Shown in pieces: positions 6,017 through 63,543 of a DNA stretch of 64,000 nt. Made by a program: the position numbers and the translations under genes. A model generated the notes under the pieces. That model saw only the letters and a program-made list of their open reading frames with translations. It was not told the DNA's origin and did no database searches. Numbering within the stretch: the first letter of the stretch is position 1; each line of letters starts with the position of its first letter. This DNA is from Chiloscyllium plagiosum (taxonomy: Eukaryota), in contig NC_057751.1 in assembly GCF_004010195.1 (NCBI RefSeq), positions 7,516,446-7,580,445 on the forward strand, read 5' to 3'.

Positions 6017-6686
6017 TGTTTTAAAAAATTCTCAAGGTCAGGTTCGTAGGAGAGTAGTCTGACACAGAACAAACGACCAAGAGGCGAGTCTGCTAGAATA
6101 TGAGCATTTTATCCCCCGCAGCGTCGCCACAACCAGGTCTCATACTTACAACAGGTCTGGCTTATACTCACTCTACATGTTACCGGAACTGGGAGCCGTC
6201 AGTTCTCGTAGAGCGGTTGCCAACAACCCACGCTCGGCGGTTAAACGTAACCCCGGAGCAGACTCACCGAACTGGAGACTTTTCCAGCTGATATACTCTT
6301 TTCCAGATATAAACATTCATGTGAACAGCAGAGCAAGGCTAAAAAACACATTCCATTCTGGTTACATACAGATAAGAAGATTCACACGGGAAGGTGTATA
6401 ACAAGATTCACACGGGACTAAGCGACACCTTCCATTTTCGGTTAGAGCAGAGCAAGGCTAAAAAACACATTCCATTCTGGTTACATACAGATAAGAAGAT
6501 TCACACGGGAAGGTGTGTAATAAGATTCACACGGGACTAAGCAACACCTCCATTCCGGTTAGATTCACACATGTATTGGGACATAATTTTTAACCGTTTC
6601 ACCACATTCCACTGCTTGGCCCAATACATGTGTTACATTATTATTCACACATGTATTGGGACATAATTTTTAACCGTTTCACCACA
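6017..6686 (-). mobile_element. Young solo LTR (LTR retrotransposon or ERV), 670 bp
   Basis: TG...CA termini. Exact 5-bp TSD CATAT at 6012-6016 and 6687-6691. CpG-rich, with internal ~119-bp and 44-bp direct repeats. Orientation inferred from the order repeats, TATA-like, GATAAA. Confidence 0.9.
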
Positions 6687-16404: not shown

Positions 16405-17435
16405 GAGTCATAGAGATATTTGGCATGGAAATAGGCACTTTGGTCCAATTCATCCGTGCCGACCAGACATCCCATTTGCTCGCATTTGCCCCAAATCCCT
16501 CTCTGCCCTTCCTATTCATGTATTCATCCAGATGCCTTTTAAATATTGTAATTGTACCACCCTCACCACTTCCTCTGGCAGCTCATTCCATATGCACACC
16601 ACCCTCTGTGTGACAAAGTGATCCCTTAGGTCCGGTTAAATCTTTCCCCCTCACACTAAACCTATTTCCTCTAGTTTTGGATTCCCTCACCCCAGCCAAC
16701 CCCAACACCTTGGCTATTCACTCTATCCATGCCCCTCATGATTTTAAAAAACCTCTAAAAGGTCATCCTTCAGTCTCCAATGTTCCGGGGAAATAAACCC
16801 CAGCCTGTTCAGCCTCTCCCCAGAGCTCAAACCTTTCAGTCCCAGCCACATCCTCGTAAATCTTTTTAGCACCTTGAGGTTTTACAGCATGCTTCTGATA
16901 GAAGGCCACCAGAATTGTATGCAGTATTCCCAAAATTGCTTCACTAGAGTCCTGTACAGCCACCACATGACATCCCAACTCCTTTCCTCAATGTTATGAC
17001 CAATGAAGACAAACGTGGCAAGTGCCCTCTTTACCACCCTGTCTAGCTGTGACTCCATTTTCAAGGTACCAAGCACCTGCACCCATAGGTCTCTTTGCTT
17101 GGTCCAACAGTTAAGTCAAAAAGACCTGCCTTGGTTTGCCTTACCAAAATACAACACCTTGCATTTGTTTAAATGAAATTCCATCTGCCATTTCTCAGCC
17201 TCTTAGCCCATCCAGTAAGGTCCCATTGTACACTGAGATAATCTTCTTAATGTCCACTGCACTACCTACTTTGGTGTCATCTCCAAACTTACCCACCATG
17301 CCTCCTACATTCACATCCACATCCACATCCAAATCATTGATATAACTGACAAAAATCAGTGGACCCAGCACTGATCCTTGTGGTGCACCATTGGCCACAG
17401 GCCTCCAGTCCAAAAAACAACTCTCCACCATGTAA
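16405..17435 (-). mobile_element. CR1/HER1-type LINE 3' ~1 kb
   Basis: Translations GAPQGSVLGPLIFVSYINDLD, KFGDDTKV and EYCIQFW, with a tail ending (ctatgactct). Confidence 0.95.
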
Positions 17436-18089
17436 CAATTCTTTGGTAAATTCACTTGCGTTAAATTGCTTTTCAAAGTACTGTAAGGATGCGGGGGAGG
17501 GTGTATGGGTTGAGGTGATATTTAGGAAACAAGAGACATGGGATGCCACATTATATGAACAAACCAACTGCAAAGTTGGCCTTTACCTACTGTGATGGGG
17601 AGACAATGGGTTTGTGAGAGCAGGGTCCCATTGTAACAGGAACACAACTGATCTCAGTCAGTCACAGTTCCATGGAGTGATCACTAATGCTGCCCAATGG
17701 CATGTGGCCACAGCCTCCAGTGTGGGAAGCCTTGAACTACAACATTAAAAAGTGGATATGTGTCTCGTTCCCTACTTCCACCATCTGGCTTGGGAGTCAA
17801 TTGGCATCATGTTCCTGCACAACTTGCAATGAAGATCTCAGTGTCTAGATTATTATGACAACAATAACTTGCCTTCACACAGTATTTCAAATACAGTGTA
17901 ACATCCACAGTTACTTCACAGGACCTTTATCAAAGACACCAGGAGACATTCCACACACAAAGACACCAGGAACAAAATGCTCAGTCCAAGATGTTGTGTT
18001 CGGTTGCAGATTGGGGCAATTCACCTTCTGGTGCAAATACAAGAGGTCTTGATGATTGGCTGAAGTAAACTGCAAGATGTTTCTTCTCA

Positions 18090-20552: not shown

Positions 20553-20735
20553 GTGTTGCTGGAAAAGCGCAGCAGGTCAGGCAGCATCCAAGGAGCAGGA
20601 GAATCCACGTTTCGGGCATGAGCCCTTCTTCAGGAAACTCGAAACGTCGATTCTCCTGCTCCTTGGATGCTGCCTGACCTGCTGCGCTTTTCCAGCAACA
20701 CATTTTCGGCTCTGATCTCCAGTCCTCACTTTCTC
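20553..20735. mobile_element. Penelope-derived palindromic mini-element with exact 14-bp TSD
   Basis: Long inverted arms. TSD CTTGGTTCTTGTAT at 20539-20552 and 20736-20749. Hammerhead-like core on minus at 20606-20633. Confidence 0.9.
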
Positions 20736-24985: not shown

Positions 24986-25145
24986 TTGCGTGTGTTAAGT
25001 GTTGGTAATGCAAAATGGTACGTTGAACAGGACTTCACAAACAAGGCAGAGAAGGTGAGGACTGCAGATGCTGGAGATCAGAGTCGAAGAGTGTGGTGCT
25101 GGAAAAGCACAGACGGTCAGGCAGCAACCAAGGAGCAGGAGAATC

Positions 25146-25173
25146 GACGTTTCAGGCATAAGCCCTTCATCAG
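25146..25173 (-). ncRNA. Minimal type I hammerhead ribozyme motif
   Basis: CTGATGA-A-GGGC-TTAT-GCCT-GAAA-CGTC on minus. Confidence 0.7.
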
Positions 25174-25183
25174 GAATGGTTTC

Positions 25184-25211
25184 CTGATGAAGGGCTCATG
25201 CTCGAAATGTC
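25184..25211 (+). ncRNA. Minimal hammerhead ribozyme motif (slightly mutated)
   Basis: CTGATGA-A-GGGC-TCAT-GCTC-GAAA-TGTC. Confidence 0.6.
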
Positions 25212-25259
25212 AATTCTCTTGGCTGCGCTTTTCCAGCACCTCACTTTTCACAAACTAGA

Positions 25260-28880: not shown

Positions 28881-31347
28881 GTGACCAAGGCTGAGACTTG
28901 GAACATTTTAATAGGGTCACAGATACCCCAACAATGAATGCATGAGTGTAAGGCAATTGGGCAAGGATTGGCTCCTATTTGGAACCATGGACCATCAAGG
29001 CATGGAAAGAGAGGGTAATTGGACCGGGGATTGTGAGGGAGTCAGAGTCAAGCAAAGAGATCATTTCAGACACACAGAGCAGGGTGTAGCCCTGGGTGAC
29101 ATGCAGCAAACAACAGTTTGTGCTGCTGGTGAACAATGTAAGAGATGACAGGAGTCCCTGGAAGCTGCTGCTGCAGCAACAGAGACGCAAATCATTCCAG
29201 GAGGAAAATGAATCTGTCAAGCTTAGTACAGTACAATCTGGCCAGGAGCTGGATTGATCAGCTCCCCTCCAATTCCATTCCTCTCACGACACTATGAAAC
29301 ACTTGATTCCAATTTACGGGCTGGTGCAGTTATCACAACATCCAAAGCTGTGATTACTGAATACAAGTTCCACAGAGATGCCACAGAGTTGTGCAACAAT
29401 CACTGCTTAGTTAGAAACATGTGATTTCCGGGTTTATGTCAAGTTGTAGATAAGAGATGTGAACAGTAGGGCAATAGACCATTATCTCCTTAAGGCTCTA
29501 TCTGTCAGCACTTATCTAAGCTGACTGCAGTACCTTAAGTTAAATAAATGTGTACTGCTCCAACAATGCCTCTCTGCCTCTAAGAACACAGGAACTGGAC
29601 TGAGGCTCCAAATTCATTTGACAAGCTCCCCACAGCTTTCGTACCTTTGGTTTGGGCGGGACTGGAACTGAGAATCCATAAATGAGAAACATGGTCCCTG
29701 GACCTTCTGCAGGTCTGGTCTGTCATGCCCCAGCACAATGGGTCCTCTGTTCTTCTTAATATTTTCTGATGTCAGTTTTTCCAGGAAATAGTTCAGGGTC
29801 TTTTGTGGAGATGGCTTGATTACTAAGAACAGGCGTCAAGATGAGTCAACACTTTGAACAGATAAAATGGAATGGATGGAGTCACAGTCAGGTCACTGGA
29901 ATAATAATTCTGAGACTCAGGGTCTGGGATATTTCTGGAAAGATGGGCTGAGGCCCTTCCACAGTAGCTCATGAAACCTCAACACAATGAATAAAACACA
30001 ATATTGAAAGCTAGGCTCAGTCACAACGACCACAAAAATATCATCCGCTGTTGTAAAACGTCCACTCGGGGAGGACATTTGCCATCCTAACCTGCTCTGG
30101 CCTACATGTGGCTCCAGACCCATAGCAATTTCACTGCATCTGATTTGGGCCACTGAAATGGCACCATTCAGTCCAAGTATAGGGATCAAATGCTGAGCTT
30201 GTCAGTGACACTCACTTCCCATGACAGAGTTAAGAAGAACAAGGTGTTGCATCAGACTTGCAAGGCACAGTTCTTCTCAAGTATCAGCTGAAATGAATCA
30301 GCTGAGTGCCTGAAGTGCCGTCTGTATAGCAAAGGGCAGTGAGACTGAACAACATATAGGGTCGCAGTGGCCCACTGATTCAAATCCCACCTTGGCAACT
30401 GGTGAAATTTGAAGCCAATTATTAAATTCCAAATAAAACAATGAACTACAGATGCTGTAAATGTCATGACTACAGATGCAGGACTGTCAACATCTCGGGA
30501 GAGAGTTCATAAAGAAGAGTGAAGGTTGTGAGTCTAGTGAACATGTGTCAAAACTGCAAGCAGCTGGGAAAGGGTGCGATTTATGCTGATGTGTGTGCTA
30601 GCATCAGGGTGAACAGAAAGGAGTGAATAGAGAGTAGACGGAGATAGTGCTGAGAGAGAGAGAGGAAGGAAAGGAGGCAAACAAAGGAATTGTTAATGAT
30701 GCAGTGAGAAGTTGAATACTCCCAGCATAACCAACCCATTTTCCACCATTCACATTTCTTAAAAGCACTCAACTCAACAATTATCTCTCTCAGCTTACCA
30801 TCAGCAATCATTCATTTATTCTATCTGATACTGAGAATACTCATACTGGGAACTGGGTAAAACAATTACACTTAGACTGTGAGCGTTCTGAGGAAGGGTC
30901 ACTTGACCTGAAGCGTTAATCTGATTTCTCTTCACAGATGTGTGATCACGCTGCTCCTTTAACAAGGTTATGCTGTCCTTAGCTTTTTTTTCCCCCAGAA
31001 AGGTCAGAAAAGCAGCAATTCCAAAAAGTCTAGGTTTAAAGGGTTTTAGGGCCAATTTGATTATAGCTAACATATACTGCCTCAGGTAAAAGGTTTTCGA
31101 GTTTAAAAAAGACACTCGGACAATGAAAGGGGAGTGGCCAGTTCTCCCAGCTCAGCTTTTCTCTGGTTTGGTTCGGTTTTTAGCAGTCTGTTCACTGAAA
31201 GAGTGCAATCAATGAGTGAGGCTGCTGGTCCAAGAAATGGCTACATGGAAGAAGGTGTTCCATGCTAAATTTCTCTGTCATCTCTCTCTCTCTCCTATAA
31301 GAGCCTGTGTTTGATTTTACCTTTTGTGCCAAGGCATGTTTCTGGGG

Positions 31348-34347
31348 CCTCAATGTTGTACCAACCTGCGAAACCAATCTGAAGCCCATCTGTCCTACAC
31401 TATTCCATTCTCATCCATGCCCTTTAAATGCCCTTCTACACTATTCCATTCTCATTTAAATGCCCTTAAAGTTGCCGAGTCTACTACTGTTTCAGGCAAT
31501 GCGTTCCATGCCCCTACTACTTTCTGAGTTAAGAAACTACCTATGACATCTGTCCTATATCAATCACCCCTCAATTTAAAGCTATGTTCCCTTGTACTAG
31601 CCATTGCCATCTGAGGAAAAAGGCTCTCACTGTCCAACCTACCTAATCCTCTGATTATCTTATATGTCTCAATTAAGTCACCTCTCAACCTTCTTCTCTC
31701 CAAAGAAAATAGCCTCAAGTTCCTCAGCCTTTCCTTGGGAGACCTTCCCTCCATACCAGGCAACATCCCAGTAAATCACCTCTGAACCGTCTCCAAAGCT
31801 TCCACATCCTTCCTACAATGCGGTGACCAGAACTATATGCAATAATCCAAGGGTGACCGCACCAGAGTTTTGTACAGCTGCAATATGACCTCATGGCTCT
31901 GAATCTCTGTCCCTCTACCAATAAAAGCTCAAACACCATATGCCTTCTTATCAAGCCTATCAATCTGGGTGGCAAATTTCAGGGATCTATTTACATGGAC
32001 AGCAAGATCTCTTGCTCATCTACACTACATTAGCCCAGTACTCTTTATTCCTGTTACTCCCTGAATCACCTCACACTTTTCTGCATTAAACTCCAATTGC
32101 CACCTCCTGGCCGAGCTCTGCAGCTTATCGATGTCCCTCTGTAACCTACAACATCCTTCGGCACTATCCACAACTCTACCGACCTTCGTGTCATCTGCAA
32201 ATTTACTAACCCATTCTTCTACGCCCTCACCCAGGTCATTTATAAAAATAACAAACAGCAGTGACCCCAAAACAGATCCTTGAAGTACACCACTAGTAAC
32301 TAAACTACAGGATGAACATTTCCCATCTGTCTTCTTTCAGCAAGCCAATTTCTGATCCAAACCACTAAATCACCCTCAATCCCATGCCTATGTATTTTGT
32401 GCAGTAGCCTCCCATGGGAACCCTTATCAAACGCCTTACTGAAATCCCTATGCACCACATCAACTGCTTTACCCTCATCCATCTGTTTGGTCACATTATT
32501 AAAGAACTCAATTATGTTTGTGAGGCACGACCTACCCTTCACAAAACCGTGTTGACTATCCCTAATCAACTTTCTAGATGATTATAAATCCTATCTCTTA
32601 TATCCTTTTCCAACACTTTACCCACAACCAAAGTAAGGCTCACAGGTCTATAATTTCCAGGGTTGTCTCTACTCCCCTTCTTGAACAAGGGAACAACATT
32701 TGCTATCCTCCAGTCTTCTAGCACTATTCCAGTAGACAATGATGACATAAAGATCAAAGCTAAAGATTCTGCAACCTCCTCCCTGGCTTCCCAGAGAATC
32801 TTAGGATAAATCCCATCCAGCCCAGGGGACTTATCTATTTTCACACTTTCCAGAATTGCTAACACCTCCTCCTTGGAAACCTCAATCCTATCCCTAGTAG
32901 CAAGTATCTCAGCATTCTCCTCAACAACATTGTCTTTTTCCTATGTGAAAACTGATGCAAAATATTCATTTAGCACTTCCCCTATCTCTTCTGATTCCAC
33001 GCACAATTTCCCACTATTCCAGTTATTCTTTTATTCCTGATATACCTATAGAAAGCCTTGGGGTTTTCCTTGATCCTATCCACCAATGACTTCTCATGTT
33101 CCCTCCTGGCTCTTCTTATCTCTCTCTTTAGGTCTTTCCTGGCTAACTTGTAACTCTCAAGGGCCCTAACTGAGCCTTCACATCTCATCCGAACATAAGC
33201 CTTTTTCTTCCTCTTGACAAGAGCTTGAACTTCTTCAGTAAACCATGGCTCCCCCGCTCAACAACTGCCTCACTGCCTGACAGGTACATAATTATCAAGG
33301 ACACACAGTAGCTGTTCCTTGAATAAGCTACACATTTCTATTGTGCCCATGCCCTGCAGTTTCCTTCCCCATCCTATGCATCTTAAATCTTGCCTAATCG
33401 CATCATAATTGCCTTTCCCCCAGCTATAACTCTTGACCTGTGATATATACCTATCCCTTTCCATCACTAAAGTAAACCTAACCGAATTGTGGTCACTATC
33501 ACCAAAGTGCTCACCTACTTCCAATTCTAACACCTGGCCAGTTTCCTTACCCAATACCAAATCTAATGTGGTCTTGCCCCTTGTTGGTCTGTCTACAAAC
33601 TGTGTCATAAAACCCTCCTAAACACATTGGTCAAAAACTGACCCATCTAACGTAATCGAACTAAAGTATTTCCATTCAATAGTTGGAAAGTTAAAGACCC
33701 CGTAACAACTACCCTGTTACTCTCACTCCTATCCAGAATCGTCTTTGCTATCCTTTCCTCTACATCTCTGGAACTATTCAGAGGCCTATAGAAAACCCCC
33801 GATAGATTAGATTAGATTACATTACATTACAGTGTGGAAACAGGCCCTTCGGCCCAACAAGTCCACACGGACTCGCCGAAGCGCAACCCACCCATACCTC
33901 TACATTTACCCCTTACCTAACACTACGGGCAATTTAGCATGGCCAATTCACCTGACCTGCACATCTTTGGACTGTGGAGGAAACCGGAGCACCCAGAGGA
34001 AACCCACGCAGACACGGGGAGAAGTGCAAACTCCACACAGTCAGTCGCCTGAGGTGGGAATTGAACCCGGGTCTCTGGCGCTGTGAGGCAACAGTCCTTT
34101 CCTATTTCTAACCTCAGCCCTTACGACCTCAGTAGATGAGTCCTCAAACGTCCTTCCTACCACCGTAATACTGCCCTTGACTAACAATGCCACACTTTCC
34201 CTCTTTTGCCATCTTTTCTGTTCATACTGAAACATCTAAATCCCGTAACCTGCAACAACCATTCCTGTCCCTGCTCTATGCATGTTTCCAAAATAACCAC
34301 AACATCAAAATCCCAGGTACCAACCCAATGCTGCAAGTTCACCCACA
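31348..34347 (-). mobile_element. CR1 LINE, most of ORF2 (APE endonuclease plus RT), frameshifted
   Basis: Translations LDLVLG...HFGDSDHN (EN), KSPGLDGIYP, NYRPVSLT, QHGFVKGRSCLTN, DFSKAFDK, KFADDTK and RRLRGDLIETYKI. Confidence 0.97.
33802..34092 (-). mobile_element. HE1-type SINE (5' end clipped) nested in the CR1 endonuclease region
   Basis: (TAGAT)n tail, near-consensus body and B box. A box missing. Confidence 0.95.
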
Positions 34348-41810: not shown

Positions 41811-42814
41811 GCCAGAACTCATGTTGATATCAAGTACTTCCTGAGTAATGAAGACAATGATGAAGATAATCTACCCAACAGACAATGTTAATCAGGATGT
41901 CATAAACCTCCCTTCCCACTGCCCTCAACACACGCTTGAATGTTAGCTTCAACAAACGAGCTCCAATACATCACATTTCAACTTCTGCAGCCGTTTTCAT
42001 TGTGGTTGGTACCTAAACAGATTATTAATAATTGTAAAATACATTGTGAACCTTGAAAACTCTATTCTAATGAGATCAATTATTGGATGCAGAGAATATT
42101 GAAGTTGAACAGAAATTCATCATTCAATGATTTCGGCGGCGAGAGATTCGGGGTTGTTATCTTTTCAGTGCAGCTTGTAATAGCAGACAATAATCTTTTA
42201 TGTGTTTAATCTAAAATTAATACTAAAAAAATTAATTAACAACAATCTTGCAAGTCGGACATTTCGTGAAGCAGCGCTACCACACACTGTGATGGTCAGA
42301 TGTTATCAGAGGAGAGCACAGCTGGGTTCCCACAATAGGCACAGCAATCTGTGAGGTTTTCAAACACAAGCCGAGTCACTGTTTCCTGATTTGCCTTATG
42401 GTGTATTCTGCTGCTGTACTGAACCTTGGCAGAGTTCTGCCCTGGAAGATTCTTGGCCCAGATTTTCCTGCAGACCTGCACTTTTGTGATGCCAATCATC
42501 ACCCATGACCCATCAACCAAGGTAAGGTGAGAATGAGGTAAAAATTACTCAGGGAGTGACTCACACCTCACTCGTGAAGCAGTGTAGTTTCACTACATCT
42601 CTACCTCTGACAATTTGTTCCACGTATTCCTCCTTTTGCCCTGTCCACTGCATGAAAAGCACCATTTTTCAGCCCGTCAGTAGCTAAGAAGAGGCACACT
42701 GGACTTGGAATGTTAACTCTGTTTCACTCTCCACAGAAGCTGCCAGACCTGCTGGGTTTCTTCAGGATTTTCTGTTTTTATGTGTAATTTCTCCCTCAAG
42801 GTTGAAATGGCTTC

Positions 42815-43995
42815 AAGATTGATGAGGTCAGAGCAGCAGATGTTGTTTACTTGGACTTCAGTAAAGCCTTAGACAAGGTTCCACATGGTAGACTAATTAG
42901 TAAAGTTAGATCACATGGGATTCAGGATGACCTTGCCAATTGTATACAAAATTGGCTTAATGGCAGGAGACAGAGTGATTGTGGAAGCTTTTCTTTTGAA
43001 TTGGAGGCCTGTGACCAGTGGTGTTCCACAGGGATCGGAGCTGGGTCCACTGTTGTTTGTCACTTATATAAATCATTTAAATGAGAATATAGAAGGCACG
43101 GTTGGTAGATGACACCAAAATTGGTGGCATAGTAGAAAGTAAAGATTTTCTAAGGTTACAAAGGGATCTTGTTCAAATGGATCCATGGGCTGAAAAATAG
43201 CAGATAGAGTGGAATCTGGATAAATGAAAGGTATTGTATTTGGTACAACAAACAAGAGTAGGACTTTCCAATCAATGGTAGGGCCTTGGGTAGTGTTGGA
43301 GAATAGAGGGACCGAGAGGTTCAGGTGCATAATTCTTTGTAGTTTGCAGAATGATTAAAAAGGCATTCAGCATGCTTGCCTTCATTGCTCAGACCTTTGA
43401 GTGTGATGGGGCATAATGTTGAGGTTGTAAAGGATTTTGGTGAGGCCCCTTCTGGAGTATTGTGTCCAGTCCTGGTCATCCAGTTAAACGGAAGGATATT
43501 ATTAAGCTGGAGATGGTTCGGAAAAGATTTACCAGGATGTTGCCAGGTGTGAAGGGTTTGAGTTATAAGGAGAGACTGGACTGGCTGAAATGTTTTGTGT
43601 TGGAGCTTAGGAGGTCGATGGGTGACCGAATAAAAGTTTATAAAATCATGAGGCTATCGGTAAGGTGAATGGCATGTTTTTTTTCCCTATGGTGGGAGAT
43701 TTCAGGACTAGGGACGTATTTTTAAGGTGAGAGGAGAAAGTTTTAAAAAGGACACGATGGGCAACTTTCATACACAGAGTGTATCATGTGCAGAATGAAC
43801 TTCCAGAGGACGTTGTGGATGTGGATAAAGTGACAACATTTAAAAGACATTTGGATAAGCACATGAATAAGAAAGGTTGGGAGGGATATGGGCTGAACTA
43901 TGGGTGGGACTAATTTAATGTAGGATTATGGTTGGCATGGACTGTTGAACTGCAGGGTCTCTTTCTGTGCTGTGTGACTCTATGACTATGACTCT
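42815..43995 (+). mobile_element. CR1 LINE 3' ~1.2 kb
   Basis: Translations DFSKALDKVPHGRL, SGVPQGSELGPLLFV and IKLEMVRKRFTRMLPG, with a (gactctat)n tail. Confidence 0.95.
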
Positions 43996-47179: not shown

Positions 47180-47385
47180 AAATTACTGCAGATGCTGGAA
47201 TCTGTACTGAAAACAGAAAATGCAGGAAGTCAGAGTGGGTCAGGCAGCATCTGTGGAGAGAGAGAAAGAGAGAAAGCAAACTAACTAGCTCTGATGAAGA
47301 GTCATCTAGACTCAAAAGGTGAATTTGTTCTCTCTCCACGGATGCTGCCTGACACACTGTGATTTCCAGCATTTTTCTTTTTTTT
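47180..47385. mobile_element. Penelope-derived palindromic mini-element with a decayed hammerhead
   Basis: Inverted arms. CTGATGA-A-GAGTC-ATCTA-GACTC-aAAA at 47291-47317. Confidence 0.8.
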
Positions 47386-49494: not shown

Positions 49495-49689
49495 AAGCAT
49501 CAAATAACTAGAGCTGGAGAAATAACTTTAAACAATTTGATGAAAGGCAATGTTCCACAGAATCGTTACAGTGTGGAAACAGGCCTTTCAAGCCCAAAAA
49601 GTCCACACCGACCCTCTGAGGAGCATCCCACCCAGACCACCCTCCCACCCTATCCCTGAACCCTGTCTTACCCATGGCTAATCTACCCA

Positions 49690-49785
49690 GGGATTCCTGA
49701 AGAAGGGCTTATGCCCGAAACGTCGATTCTCCTGTTCCCTGGATGCTGCCTGACCTTCTGCGCTGTTCCAGCAACACATTTTCAG
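49690..49785 (+). mobile_element. 96-bp Penelope-derived monomer with 18-bp TSD
   Basis: TSD ccatggctaatctaccca (49672-49689) / ccatagctaatctaccca (49786-49803). Confidence 0.9.
49691..49730 (+). ncRNA. Minimal type I hammerhead ribozyme, intact core
   Basis: ggattc-CTGAAGA-A-GGGC-TTAT-GCCC-GAAA-CG-TC-gattct. Predicted cleavage after C49724. Stem I has one mismatch. Confidence 0.75.
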
Positions 49786-50254
49786 CCATAGCTAATCTAC
49801 CCAATCTGCACAACCTTATACACTATGGGCAGTTTAGCACGGCCAATCCAGCAAACCTGCACATCTTTGGACTGTGGAAGGAAACTGGAACATCCAGAGG
49901 TAACCCACACAGACTTGGGGAGAACATGCAAACCCCACACAGATGGTTGCCCGAGGCTGGAATTGAACCTGGGTCCCTGGCGCTGTGAGGCAGCAGGGCT
50001 CACCACTGACCCACCATGCTAACAAAGCAAAACGATATAGCAGCAGAACAATAAAAAATCAGTCTATCCCCGAGAGGAAGGACTCGTAAAAGGGGATAAA
50101 CTGACTACAATTAACCAAGAGGTTAAGGATAGCATCAAACAGAAAGAAAGAAAATGCAACCTGGAGAAGATTAGTCGTAAGACAGAAAACTGGGAAAATG
50201 CCATATACAAAAAAAAACACAGGTTCAAGGCATCTGTAATTATAGTCCCTGTTA

Positions 50255-50828: not shown

Positions 50829-50947
50829 CTCTGATGAAGAGCTTATGCCGGAAATGTCGATTCTCCTGCTCCTTGGATGCTGCCTAACCTGCTGTGTTTT
50901 TCCATCGACTCTGATCTCCAGCATCTGCAGTCCGTCCTCACTTTCTC
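50829..50947 (+). mobile_element. Penelope-derived monomer starting at a hammerhead core
   Basis: TSD caaatgtggctcat / caaatatgcctcat. CTGATGA-AGAGC-TTAT-GCCG-GAAA-TGTC at 50831-50858. Confidence 0.8.
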
Positions 50948-53845: not shown

Positions 53846-54305
53846 CTCCAAGGACACGTGCAAGCGAGCCATGATATCGATGGACATCGACGCAACAAAG
53901 GTAGCCACCAAAGGTTGTGGTCTGTGCAGACTGACTGTTAGGAGGAGAAACATAAAACTCAGCTGGCTGAGCAGAGGGCCCCAGAGTAACAGGGTCTGGA
54001 GAATCCTTAAGATTCCCAGTCCACGGCCTTCCTCCACTGCTAGTCACCTTTGACAGCACCTTCCAAACCCAGAACCACAACCATGTAGAAGTATAAGGAC
54101 AGCAAATGTGTGCAAGGATCAGCACCTGCAAGCCCCACCCACTCCAAGTCAATCGCCATCCTGAATCTGAAATATCTCACCTCCCCTATTGTTGGGCCAA
54201 AATCCTGTAAGTTCCTTTCGCACAGCACTGTGACACATGGTAGGTTAAGATGCCAGGTGGATGAGGGGTATGGATGGGCAAGGGGTAGGGTTCCAGACGG
54301 ATGAG

Positions 54306-54387
54306 GGGTAAAGTGACAATCAGACGGGTGAGGCTACAGAGGATGAGGGTAAAGTGACAATCAGACGGGTGAGGCTACAGAGGATGA
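54306..54387. repeat. Exact 41-bp tandem duplication in a G-rich tract
   Basis: gggtaaagtgacaatcagacgggtgaggctacagaggatga x2. Confidence 0.95.
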
Positions 54388-54764
54388 GTCTGCAGAGGGA
54401 GTCAGGAGTTGGAAGAAGGGCCAGAACCAGTCAGTGGGGGTTGTGGCGATGGGGATGGTTGAAAGTTGGAGGTCAGGTTGGATTGGACCATGTCTGCTGA
54501 TGTCGGGTGTCTTTGGGGTTTAGGGCTGGGGACTGGCTCGGGTCTGGGGGAAGAGACATTTCAGTCACCCATGCACAGTCAAAGTTGGGGAAGGATGGGG
54601 GCATGGTGTTGCATGCTTAAGGGAAATGTGTGGGAATCCGGCGCGTACAGTCAGCTCCAAGGACTGTAGCAATTATAACATCAGCTTCCGCTGCCCTTTC
54701 AGGGATTGCGATGGAGAACACAAGAACTCACTGGGCTCAAAAAGAACGCTTCTCTCCTGACGAA

Positions 54765-57584: not shown

Positions 57585-58790
57585 GAACATAGTAAAAGAA
57601 AAGGACAGCACAGAACAGGTCCTTCGGCCCACAATGTTGTGCTGCGGATGATTCCTAATCTAAATTAAAATAACCTAACCTACGCACCCCTCAATTCACT
57701 GCTGTCCATGTGCACGCCCCTAATGACTCTGCTTCCACCACCACCACTGGCAACGCACTCCATGCATTCACAACTCTCTGCATAAAGAACCTACCTCTGA
57801 CGTCTCCTCTATACCTTCCTCCTAATACCTTAAAGCTGTGACCCCTCGTGCCACTCAATCCTACTCTGGGGAAACGTCTCTGGCTATTGACTCTATCCAT
57901 GCCTCTTATTACCTCAATCAGGTCATCTCTCTTCCTCCTTCTCTCCAGAGAGAAAAGTCCAAGCTTAGTCAACCTCTCTTCGTAAGACAAGCCCTGGAGT
58001 CCAGGCAGCATCCTGTTAAACCTTCTTTGGACCCTCTCCATAGCCTCTGTATCTTTCCTATAATTGGGCGACCAGAACTGGACACAATATTCCAAGTGTG
58101 GTCTCACCCGGGACTTGCAGAGCTGCAGCAAAACCTCACGGCTCTGAAACTTGATCCCTCTGTTATTGAAAGCCAAAACACTATATGCTTTCTGAACAAC
58201 CCTATCCACATAGGTGGCAACTTTGAGGGATCTATGTATTTGCATACCCAGATCCCTCTGTTCCTCCACACTGCCAAGAATCCTGTCTTTAATCCTATAT
58301 TCAGAATTCAAGTTTAACCTTCCAAAATGCATCACTTCACATTTATCCAGGTTGAACTCTATCTGCCATTTCTCAGTCCAGCTCTGCATCCTGTCTATGT
58401 CGCGTTGCAGACTGCAGTAGCCCTCAATACTATCAACGGCACCTCCAACCTTTGTGTCATCGGCAAATTTACTAACCCACCCGTCAACCTCCTCATCCAA
58501 GTCATTTATAAAAACTACAAAGAGCAGAGGACCAAGATAAGAGCCCTGAGGGACACCATTCACCACTCATCTCCAGGCAGAATACTTTCCATCTACAACC
58601 ACTCTTTGCCCTCTGTCAGCTAACCAATTCTGAATCTAGATAGCCAAATTTCCCTGTATCCCATACTTCCTGACTTAATGAATGACCCTAACCTGGGGAA
58701 CCTTCTCAAATGCCTTGCTGAAGTCCAGATACACCACATCCACTGCTCGACCTTGGTCGACCTGTCTCGTCACCTCGTCAAAGAACTTAC
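57585..58790 (-). mobile_element. Young CR1 LINE 3' ~1.2 kb with a 291-aa open RT stretch
   Basis: ORF 57691-58566: GVPQGSYLGPLLF, FADDTK, LEYCVQFWSP and RGHSFKV. Confidence 0.97.
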
Positions 58791-59194: not shown

Positions 59195-59522
59195 TATTAG
59201 GTGCATTAGTCAGGGGTAAATGTCGGGTCTGGGTGGGTTACTCTTCGGAGGGTCAATGTGGACTTGTTGGGCTAAGTGGCCTGTTTCCACACTGGGAGAA
59301 AGTGAGGACTGCAGACGGTGGAGATCAGAGTTGAAGAGTGTGACACTGGAAAAGCACAGCCGGTCAGGCAGCACCCAAGGAGCAGGAGAGTCGAAGCTTC
59401 GAGTATAAGTTCTTCATGAGGAATACTGCCTGATGCTCAGATGCTGCCTGACCAACTGTGCTTTTCCAGCACCACACTCTTCAATACTGTTTCCTCATTG
59501 TCGGAAATCTAATCTAATCTAA
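59195..59522 (+). mobile_element. HE1 3' fragment interrupted by a Penelope-derived palindromic element (59295-59486)
   Basis: Degenerate TSD ctgtttccacactg (59281-59294) / ctgtttcctcattg (59487-59500). Confidence 0.85.
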
Positions 59523-61029: not shown

Positions 61030-63543
61030 ACCAGGTTGGTCAGGATAACCTTGAGGAGGAGTTCACCAAATGTATCCGCAATAGTTTTCTTGAACAGTAT
61101 ATAATGGAACTGATGAGGGAGCAAGCTATCTTAAATCTGGTCCTGTGTAATGAGACAAGAATAACTGATGATCTCATAGTTAGGGATCCTCTTGGAAGGA
61201 GCGATCACCGTGTGGCTGAATGTAGAATACAGATGGAAACGCAAAGCTAAATTGAGGTGAATTGGCCATGCTAAATTGCCCGTAGTGTTAGGTGAAGGGG
61301 TAAATTTAGGGGAATGGGTCTGGGTGGGTTGCGCTTCGGCGGGTCGGTGTGGACTGGTTGGGCCGAAGAGCCTGTTTCCACACTGTAAGTAATCTAATCC
61401 AATACCAGGCTCCTGTGTTTAAACAAAGGAGACAACAATAAGATGAGAGAGGAGTTGGCTGAAGTAGACTGGAAGCAACAACTTTATGGTGGGACAGTTG
61501 ATGAACAGTGGAGGACTTTCAAGGCAATTTTTCAAAGTGCTCAGCAAAAGTATATTCCAGTGAAAAGGAAGGGCTGTAGGAAAAGCAGTAATCTGTCATG
61601 GATTCCTAAGGAAATATGGGAAGCTGTCAAATTAAAAGCGAAGGCACACAAAATGGCAAAGACTAACAGCAAACTAGAAGATTGGGAAAACTTTAAAAGT
61701 CAACAGAAAGCCACAAAAACACCTATAAAGAAAAGTAAGATTATGAGAGTAAACTAGAATATAAAGATAGGTAGCAAAACAGTGGCTAAGTTAAACATTG
61801 GTCCTTTACAGGATGAGAAGGGGTATTTCGTAATGGGATATGAGGAAATGGCCAAGATACTGAACAGGTAATTTGTGTTGGTCTTCACAGTGGAGAACAC
61901 AAATAACATGCCAAATACTGTTAAAAATCACCCAATATCAGGCTATAGTCCAATAGGTTTATTTGGAAGTACAAGTTTTCATAGTGCTGCTCCTTTGTCA
62001 GGTAGCAACGCTCTGAAAGCTTGTATTTCCAAATAAACCTGTTGGATGATAACCTGGTGTTATGCGATTTTTAACTTTGTCCACCCCAGTCCAACACCAG
62101 CACCTCCACATCATAGATGGCAGATACTGACAAGCAGACAAAGATTGGTGAGGACCTGGAGACAATCAATATCACAAAAGAGGTAATGTTGGGCAAACTA
62201 ATGGAGCTAAAGGTAGACAAGTCTCCTGGCCCTGATGAAATGCATCCCAGAGTACTAAAAGAGATGGCGAAGGAAATACCAAATGCACTTGTGGAAATTT
62301 TCCAAAATTCGCTGTACTCTGGGGCAGTTCCAACGGATTAGAAAACAGCAAATGTGAAGCCACTGTTTTAAAAGAGAGGTAGACAAAAGATGGGGAGTTA
62401 TCGGCAGGTAGTGGGGAAAAAGCTTGAATCTACTATGAAGGAAGAAATAGCAAGCTATCTAGATTGAAATTGTCCTATTGGGCAGAAGCAGCATGGTTAA
62501 TGAAGGGCATGTCATGCTTAGCTAATCTACTGGAATTCTATTAAGACGTTACAAGCATGGTGGACAATGGGGTCCCAGTGGATGTGGTGTACCTAGATTT
62601 CCAAAAGACATTCCAAAAGTTCTGCACAAAAGGCTGCTGCATTAGATAAAGATGCATGACGTTACAGGGTCATGTAGTAGCATGGATAGAGGAATTGGTT
62701 AACTGACTGGAAGCAAAGAGTGAGAATAAATGAATGTTTTTCTGGTTGGTGATCGGTGACTAGGGGCATGCCTCAAAGGGATCAGTGTTGGGATCACAAT
62801 TATTCACAACTTATACAGATGATTTGGAGTGTAGTGTGTAGTGTAGTGTGTTAAAGTTTGCGGATGACACTAGGATGAGTAGTAGGGCAAAGTGTACAGA
62901 GGACTGTGAAACTTTTCTGAGGGTCATAGATAATGTAAGTGAGTGGGCAAAGATCTGGCAGAAGCAGTACAACATGAATAAATGTGAAGTCATCCATTTT
63001 GGTAGGAATAATACTAAAAAGGACGATTATTTGAATGGTAACACATTGCAGCATGGGAACTGGGTGTCCTTGTGCATGAATCACAGAAGTTTGGTCTGCA
63101 TATGCAACAGGTAATTCAGAAGGCAAATGGAATTTTGTCCTTCACTGCTAAAGAGATTGAGGTTAAAATCAAGGAGGTTATGTTGTAGCTCTATATGGTG
63201 CTGGTGAGGCCACACCCCTGGAATACTGTGTGCAGTTTTGGTCTCCTTACTTGAGAAAGGATGTACTGGCACTAGAGGGGGTGCAGAGGAGGTTGATTCC
63301 AGAGTTGAGAGGGTTGGCTTATGAGGACAGACACTGAGTAGACTGGGATTACATTCATTGGAATTTAGAAGAATGAGGGCGAATCGCATATAAATACATA
63401 AAATAATGAATGGAATATATAAGATAGAGGTAGAGAGGATGTTTCCACTGGCAAGTGAAACTAGGACAAGAGGGCATAGCCTCAAAACTAGGGAAGTAGA
63501 GTTAGGACTGAACTGAGAAGGAAATTCTTCATCCAAAGGGTTT
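61030..63543 (+). mobile_element. CR1 LINE ORF2 (EN end through RT), degraded; interrupted by an HE1 fragment (61254-61399) and a palindromic element (61921-62116)
   Basis: Translations ILNLVLCNE...PLGRSDH, KSPGPDEMHPRVLKE, KFADDT and NKCEVIHFGRNN. Confidence 0.95.
61921..62116. mobile_element. Palindromic mini-element, second Penelope-like family
   Basis: Inverted arms. TSD atgccaaatactg / atggcagatactg. Confidence 0.8.

Follow-up and report, generated by a model that had tools for sequence, protein, structure and literature searches.

A 96-bp insertion headed by a hammerhead ribozyme motif interrupts a SINE at this locus, raising the question of what kind of element was inserted and by what route it was copied. 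The insertion is considered here within the whole 64-kb stretch of DNA that was analysed (the window), which, judging from its SINE and CR1-type fragments, is probably non-coding and from a cartilaginous fish. The preferred reading, to which a probability of about 70% is assigned, is that the insert is a retroposed stub representing the pLTR end of an endonuclease-bearing Penelope-like element (PLE), likely generated by target-primed reverse transcription of uncut RNA into the SINE.

Insertion within a SINE

The insert lies between 18-bp duplicates that are identical at 17 bases and differ at one (Table 1), and the score of this duplication is reached by 1 of 300 random site pairs. The host SINE was compared with other SINE copies in the window after deletion of the insert and one duplicate. 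The junction is spanned by 8 of 16 non-self matches, at 70–77% identity; the insert is absent from all eight, and the target is present once in five of them and gapped in the remaining three. The random control and the empty SINE copies bear out the original prediction that the insert splits a SINE and is flanked by a target-site duplication matching at 17 of 18 positions, and the comparison supports the conclusion that the 96-bp insertion came after insertion of the SINE. This tRNA-headed host is taken to be HE1-like, and the description of HE1 in the available text of PMC2911107 agrees with it. A 3-kb stretch was found, whole or in part, in 20 of the 24 sequencing runs listed, under three organism labels, and no RNA run is among those listed as holding it.

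A Pfam search of 120 of the 194 open frames of at least 75 residues in the window yielded no GIY-YIG match; it did yield six pieces of reverse transcriptase, whose motifs we take to be of CR1 type. Broken remnants of reverse transcriptase from CR1-type LINEs lie at 57694–58566 (−), 32028–32581 (−), 17198–17521 (−), 42806–43081 (+), and 62842–63111 (+). Within the window, no PLE coding sequence linking to the insert family was found, a point against its PLE origin. Tandem duplications are present at 6327–6563 (119 bp, 2 copies, 95%) and 54294–54388 (41 bp, 2.3 copies, 96%).

Table 1. Positions of the insert, its parts, its host, and its sister copies in the window.
Feature	Position	Strand	Evidence
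Left copy of target-site duplication, 18 bp	49672–49689	+	17/18 vs 49786–49803
Right copy of target-site duplication	49786–49803	+	17/18 vs 49672–49689
96-bp insert: probable PLE end piece headed by hammerhead, short (tail-less) 3' class	49690–49785	+	boundaries, target-site duplication, 3'-end comparison
Host tRNA-headed SINE, HE1-like, split by insert	49559–50020	−	70–77% identity, 8 window copies spanning junction
Stem I 5' strand; insert starts at its first base	49690–49696	+	pairs with 49725–49731 in minimum-energy fold, one U-U mismatch
Catalytic box C3–A9, followed by the additional unpaired base usual in minimal hammerheads of PLEs	49697–49704	+	sequence; consensus in PMC4209133 supplement
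Stem II, 4 bp, 4-nt loop, with G10.1-C11.1 pair	49705–49716	+	pair probabilities 0.99–1.0
GAAA box, stem III shrunk to palindrome ACGU, C17; predicted cut after 49724	49717–49724	+	sequence
Stem I 3' strand	49725–49731	+	minimum-energy fold
Terminal-repeat body, A/C-rich at its end, putative proximal reverse-transcription start	49732–49785	+	stops where 35-nt tail of sister copies starts
Sister solo copy with long tail; hammerhead decayed, 14-bp duplication weak (12/14)	50829–50947	+	
Sister head-to-head pair, 14/14 duplication, tail on + arm only	20553–20735	.	
Sister head-to-head pair, tail on − arm only; second intact hammerhead on − arm, core at 25173	25049–25246	.	
Sister head-to-head pair, tail on − arm only, decayed	59296–59486	.	

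The minimal hammerhead of the insert

The hammerhead core begins 7 nt inside the insert and is intact, as originally predicted and with the same letters, and the first base of the insert is the first base of stem I. Both boxes of the minimal hammerhead, CUGANGA and GAAA..UH, are present, as are the single extra base (A49704) following the core at 49697–49703, the G49705-C49716 pair, and the palindromic 15.2-16.2 position formed by C49721/G49722. The insert matches the consensus of the minimal hammerheads of metazoan PLEs (Cervera and De la Pena 2014, PMC4209133), a point in favor of PLE origin: CUGANGA with one extra base, a stem II closed by G-C, GAAA, a palindromic stem III, a short stem I, and occurrence as dispersed singles and opposite-strand pairs are common to both, whereas stem II of the insert has only 4 bp. 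Dispersed minimal hammerheads of truncated PLEs have been known since 2014 in many animals, including fish, coelacanth, and frog, and no shark entry occurs in the available content of two supplementary files of the same study (PMC4209133). The sequence supports the assignment of the motif as a type I hammerhead of the minimal form seen in PLEs. Both its motif and the anatomy of the insertion would place the insert among the minimal hammerheads that truncated PLEs leave as solo copies.

A search for the hammerhead pattern gave two sites in the window, where 0.01 are expected. Both sites, and no others, were recovered with a minimal-hammerhead descriptor designed after the published consensus, which gave one match in 40 resampled windows. 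Rfam gives no match at gathering score across the window, and around the insert it gives only two chance matches (E 0.37 and 1.4), neither of them a hammerhead. A strict motif has no metagenome matches. A looser motif has no viral, seven prokaryote-genome, and six metagenome matches, and all 13 were rejected because the core is missing and about 5.7 are expected by chance in the genome set.

In the minimum-energy fold, stem I consists of six pairs and one U-U mismatch with pair probabilities of 0.42–0.65. Folding energy gives no support for the hammerhead, because the stability of the 96-mer is that of its shuffles (z −0.10). The 5' and 3' strands of stem I (49692–49696 and 49725–49729) share an identical near-palindromic 5-mer, which is hence also a direct repeat and could act as junction microhomology. 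On its own, a genomic copy is probably inert: stem III would form only with a partner, and cutting would need a partner or PLE protein. The dimeric fold (−23.9 kcal/mol) is possible although it is not the predicted ground state, given that two monomers score −25.0 and the best co-fold −28.0. Published minimal motifs are inactive alone and weak as dimers, according to the available text of PMC4209133.

Related copies and their ends

Related copies were sought with an iterated profile built from the window copies themselves (E<0.001), with the reversed window as a control. This search identified 17 related arms at 12 loci in the 64-kb window, together with three weaker ones, against a best E of 0.29 in the reversed window, in agreement with the roughly ten copies originally predicted. 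The arms occupy ∼2.6% of the window; head-to-head pairs make up five of the 12 loci, whereas the insert is a solo copy. The hammerhead descriptor is matched by only two of the 17 arms, and two intact motifs per 64 kb correspond to 4–113 per Mb (95% range from one window). The very high genomic density of ribozyme motifs originally anticipated should accordingly be viewed with caution. About 4,000 and 9,000 such motifs have been counted in coelacanth and Xenopus tropicalis, respectively (PMC4209133). A weak (E 0.008) diverged copy at 30888–30940 (+) keeps the core; its stem II has 6 bp, and the C-G pair at the base of its stem I is replaced by U-A.

The youngest family comprises five insertions, namely the insert and the four sister copies of Table 1, with eight arms in total. 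The pair at 59296–59486 also lies inside the same type of tRNA-headed SINE, near its 3' end, at a site different from that of the insert. Among nine loci examined, target-site duplications are strong at two (17/18 and 14/14), weak at three, and absent at four old loci. No copy in the window extends into coding sequence. The arm at 25049–25177 (−) is a single open frame of 43 codons throughout, with an ATG in loop II, and recalls the Anolis PLE frame that starts in stem II; a weak search with the 43-residue peptide found no longer protein relative. In older subfamilies, at 47251 (−), 39139 (−), 42736 (+), and 59440 (+), the hammerhead is followed by a pyrimidine tract and then CAG immediately ahead of a conserved ATGCTGCC box, an arrangement that in sequence resembles a splice acceptor and start codon. 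In the youngest family, GG is mostly found at this position.

Comparison of six young arms with their majority sequence gives 2 differences in 66 core positions and 33 in 357 of the remainder (p=0.14), so that the core is not significantly better conserved than the rest, as expected for copies that decay after insertion. Across 11 arms from several subfamilies, mostly decayed, 75.8% of cells are paired, a value reached by 15 of 500 shuffles and compared with 4.5–50% when the pairing is slid. Three of six tested pairs are altered on both sides in these arms, which 249 of 500 shuffles match. The data from the 11 arms are thus compatible with the hammerhead fold, with covariation at shuffle level. 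Transcripts of inverted pairs are predicted to form long hairpins that bury the motif.

The 3' ends of the young family fall into two classes, with four of the eight arms sharing a distal end within 1 nt and the other four, including the insert, ending before a 35-nt tail. Measured from the start of stem II, the long 3' ends lie at 116 nt and the short ones at 72–80 nt. The tail is present on one arm only in all three young inverted pairs, and two older pairs look alike in this respect. The description of the insert as a discrete 96-bp unit is not supported, given that half of the young arms are 35 nt longer at the 3' end and that three of the five young insertions are inverted pairs.

At the 5' side, six of the eight young arms start 2–7 nt before the core, as does the longest arm in each of the five young insertions, and the remaining two young arms begin inside or beyond the hammerhead. 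Among the older arms, the one at 47283 (−) starts near the cut site and others start downstream of the hammerhead. Together with those two young arms, they speak against a simple rule. The upstream flanks of five solo or + arms have no shared similarity (scores 11–18; null median 14, 95th percentile 20). Under uniform truncation the rough odds of such clustering range from 0.003 to 0.000001 depending on the assumption, for a small sample in which paired arms share one junction. The random 5' ends expected of ordinary truncation were accordingly not found, and the evidence from five insertions, with paired arms sharing one junction, supports a non-random 5' end. Clustering of 5' ends at stem I was not found described in the literature on PLEs and hammerheads, a set of partly available texts that includes few subscription papers and is weak evidence of absence.

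The shared 5' edge and the absence of any window copy reaching coding sequence are also what a discrete non-autonomous, SINE-like family would produce, having a 95–130-nt RNA that starts at stem I, master copies of its own, and the PLE enzyme supplied in trans; pLTR sequences can indeed drive insertion in trans (PMC3846280). Such a family is nevertheless unlikely: its members would vary in length, three of the five young insertions are inverted pairs with different centers, and neither strand of the insert contains the internal Pol III A and B boxes of a Pol III SINE, as judged by simple patterns. It is doubtful, in addition, that the stubs form a PLE-dependent SINE-like family with an RNA of 95–130 nt that starts exactly at stem I and is amplified from short master copies, and in which the uncut hammerhead serves the retrotransposition complex as a 5'-end and recognition module and not as a cutter. 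If the SINE-like reading were true, thousands of genomic copies would constitute a fossil map showing where the template begins and, for both sites, where reverse transcription is initiated in vivo.

Alternatively, the 5' edge could be a preferred truncation on a long PLE template, caused by a halt, a template switch, or endonuclease resolution past the hammerhead. PLE insertions are heavily 5'-truncated (PMC8557442, PMC8969392), and the inversion junctions likewise fall at or inside the hammerhead; a structural block, however, would be expected to stop synthesis before the fold has been passed, either at its 3' side or inside it, whereas six of the eight young arms end just past it, and this origin appears improbable.

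Self-cleavage did not create the 5' end and was rejected as its cause, because the insert retains 35 nt on the upstream side of the predicted cut site. The position of this end and the lack of a head-to-tail array in the window also tell against the retrozyme-like character originally proposed. It is highly improbable that the insert is a monomer of a non-LTR retrozyme, self-cleaved from a tandem array, circularised, and reverse-transcribed. Non-LTR retrozymes (PMC7229834; 10.64898/2026.07.22.740005) resemble the insert in being non-coding, in having a type I hammerhead, and in their probable dependence on PLEs, and a preprint derives animal retrozymes from pLTRs, with dispersed monomers and families in Chondrichthyes (10.64898/2026.07.22.740005). 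Their head-to-tail arrays give rise to circular RNAs, however, whereas the copies here are solo or head-to-head and have ends off the cut site; within the window there are no head-to-tail copies, and the nearest same-strand arms are 1,139 bp apart in separate insertions. The hammerhead is likewise of the minimal PLE type and not the canonical retrozyme type (PMC7229834), which has a formed stem III in place of the ACGU of the insert, for which there is no Rfam match.

Proposed copying from uncut PLE RNA

Mobilisation by PLE machinery after the HE1 insertion, a further element of the original prediction, is supported by the optional 35-nt tail, the head-to-head arms, and the long duplications. 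PLE insertions have as their hallmarks a tail of 30–40 bp, which is optional and confined to one end, and an inverted copy next to it (PMC8557442, PMC3846280), and the copies described here resemble insertions of endonuclease-bearing PLEs in having the 35-nt tail on one arm, head-to-head arms, and target-site duplications of variable length. They differ in that whole insertions span 96–200 bp with no coding part and that duplications measure 12–18 bp compared with 8–10 bp in rotifers. The 18-bp duplication, which exceeds the rotifer cases in the available text of PMC3846280, counts against the PLE reading.

A mechanistic parallel is provided by Poseidon PAc of Anolis carolinensis (Frangieh et al. 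2024, PMC11167929). In vitro, cDNA of this PLE starts internally, 111–118 nt past the start of stem II of the hammerhead; its tail is the stretch between two start sites; and ribozyme-dead RNA inserts equally well, with the ribozyme cutting only in the presence of protein. The insert family would share an internal reverse-transcription start ∼115 nt past stem II, and presumably also uncut RNA as the substrate and a tail between two start sites. PAc differs in being autonomous, with a frame that starts in stem II, whereas no such frame is tied to the insert family. The correspondence between 111–118 nt and the 116 nt measured here may be partly due to chance, and the available text of PMC11167929 does not state whether 111–118 nt represents the distal site. 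PLE transcripts begin in the upstream pLTR, and in Drosophila virilis the intron extends as far as the 5' end of stem I (PMC4209133). The role of the PLE hammerhead in vivo is stated to be unclear (PMC8557442).

In the reading of the insert as a PLE end piece, the PLE protein would bind RNA downstream of the hammerhead and nick the target, and cDNA would then start internally at the proximal of two start sites, the distal one having been used by the sisters with a tail. Copying would run through the uncut hammerhead and end just where stem I begins, most likely since the template RNA starts at this point, like a transcript from an upstream pLTR, and a second nick 18 bp away would generate the duplication. 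A transcript beginning just before the hammerhead and primed at the first tail copy would give products of 95–130 bp. We infer a link between template start at stem I and internal initiation. Because the stub would be copied from uncut PLE RNA, this reading needs neither a separate non-autonomous RNA nor cleavage.

The class of element is already known, and the clustered 5' edge is the one feature that deserves a genome-wide test; in this high-copy family, tabulating 5' ends, inversion junctions, and tail use across the genome would directly probe the template start at stem I. With its exact boundaries, the nested insertion would be a natural record of reverse transcription that passed through an uncut hammerhead and ended at the front edge of the motif, in agreement with the in vitro finding of 2024 that insertion occurs without cleavage (PMC11167929).
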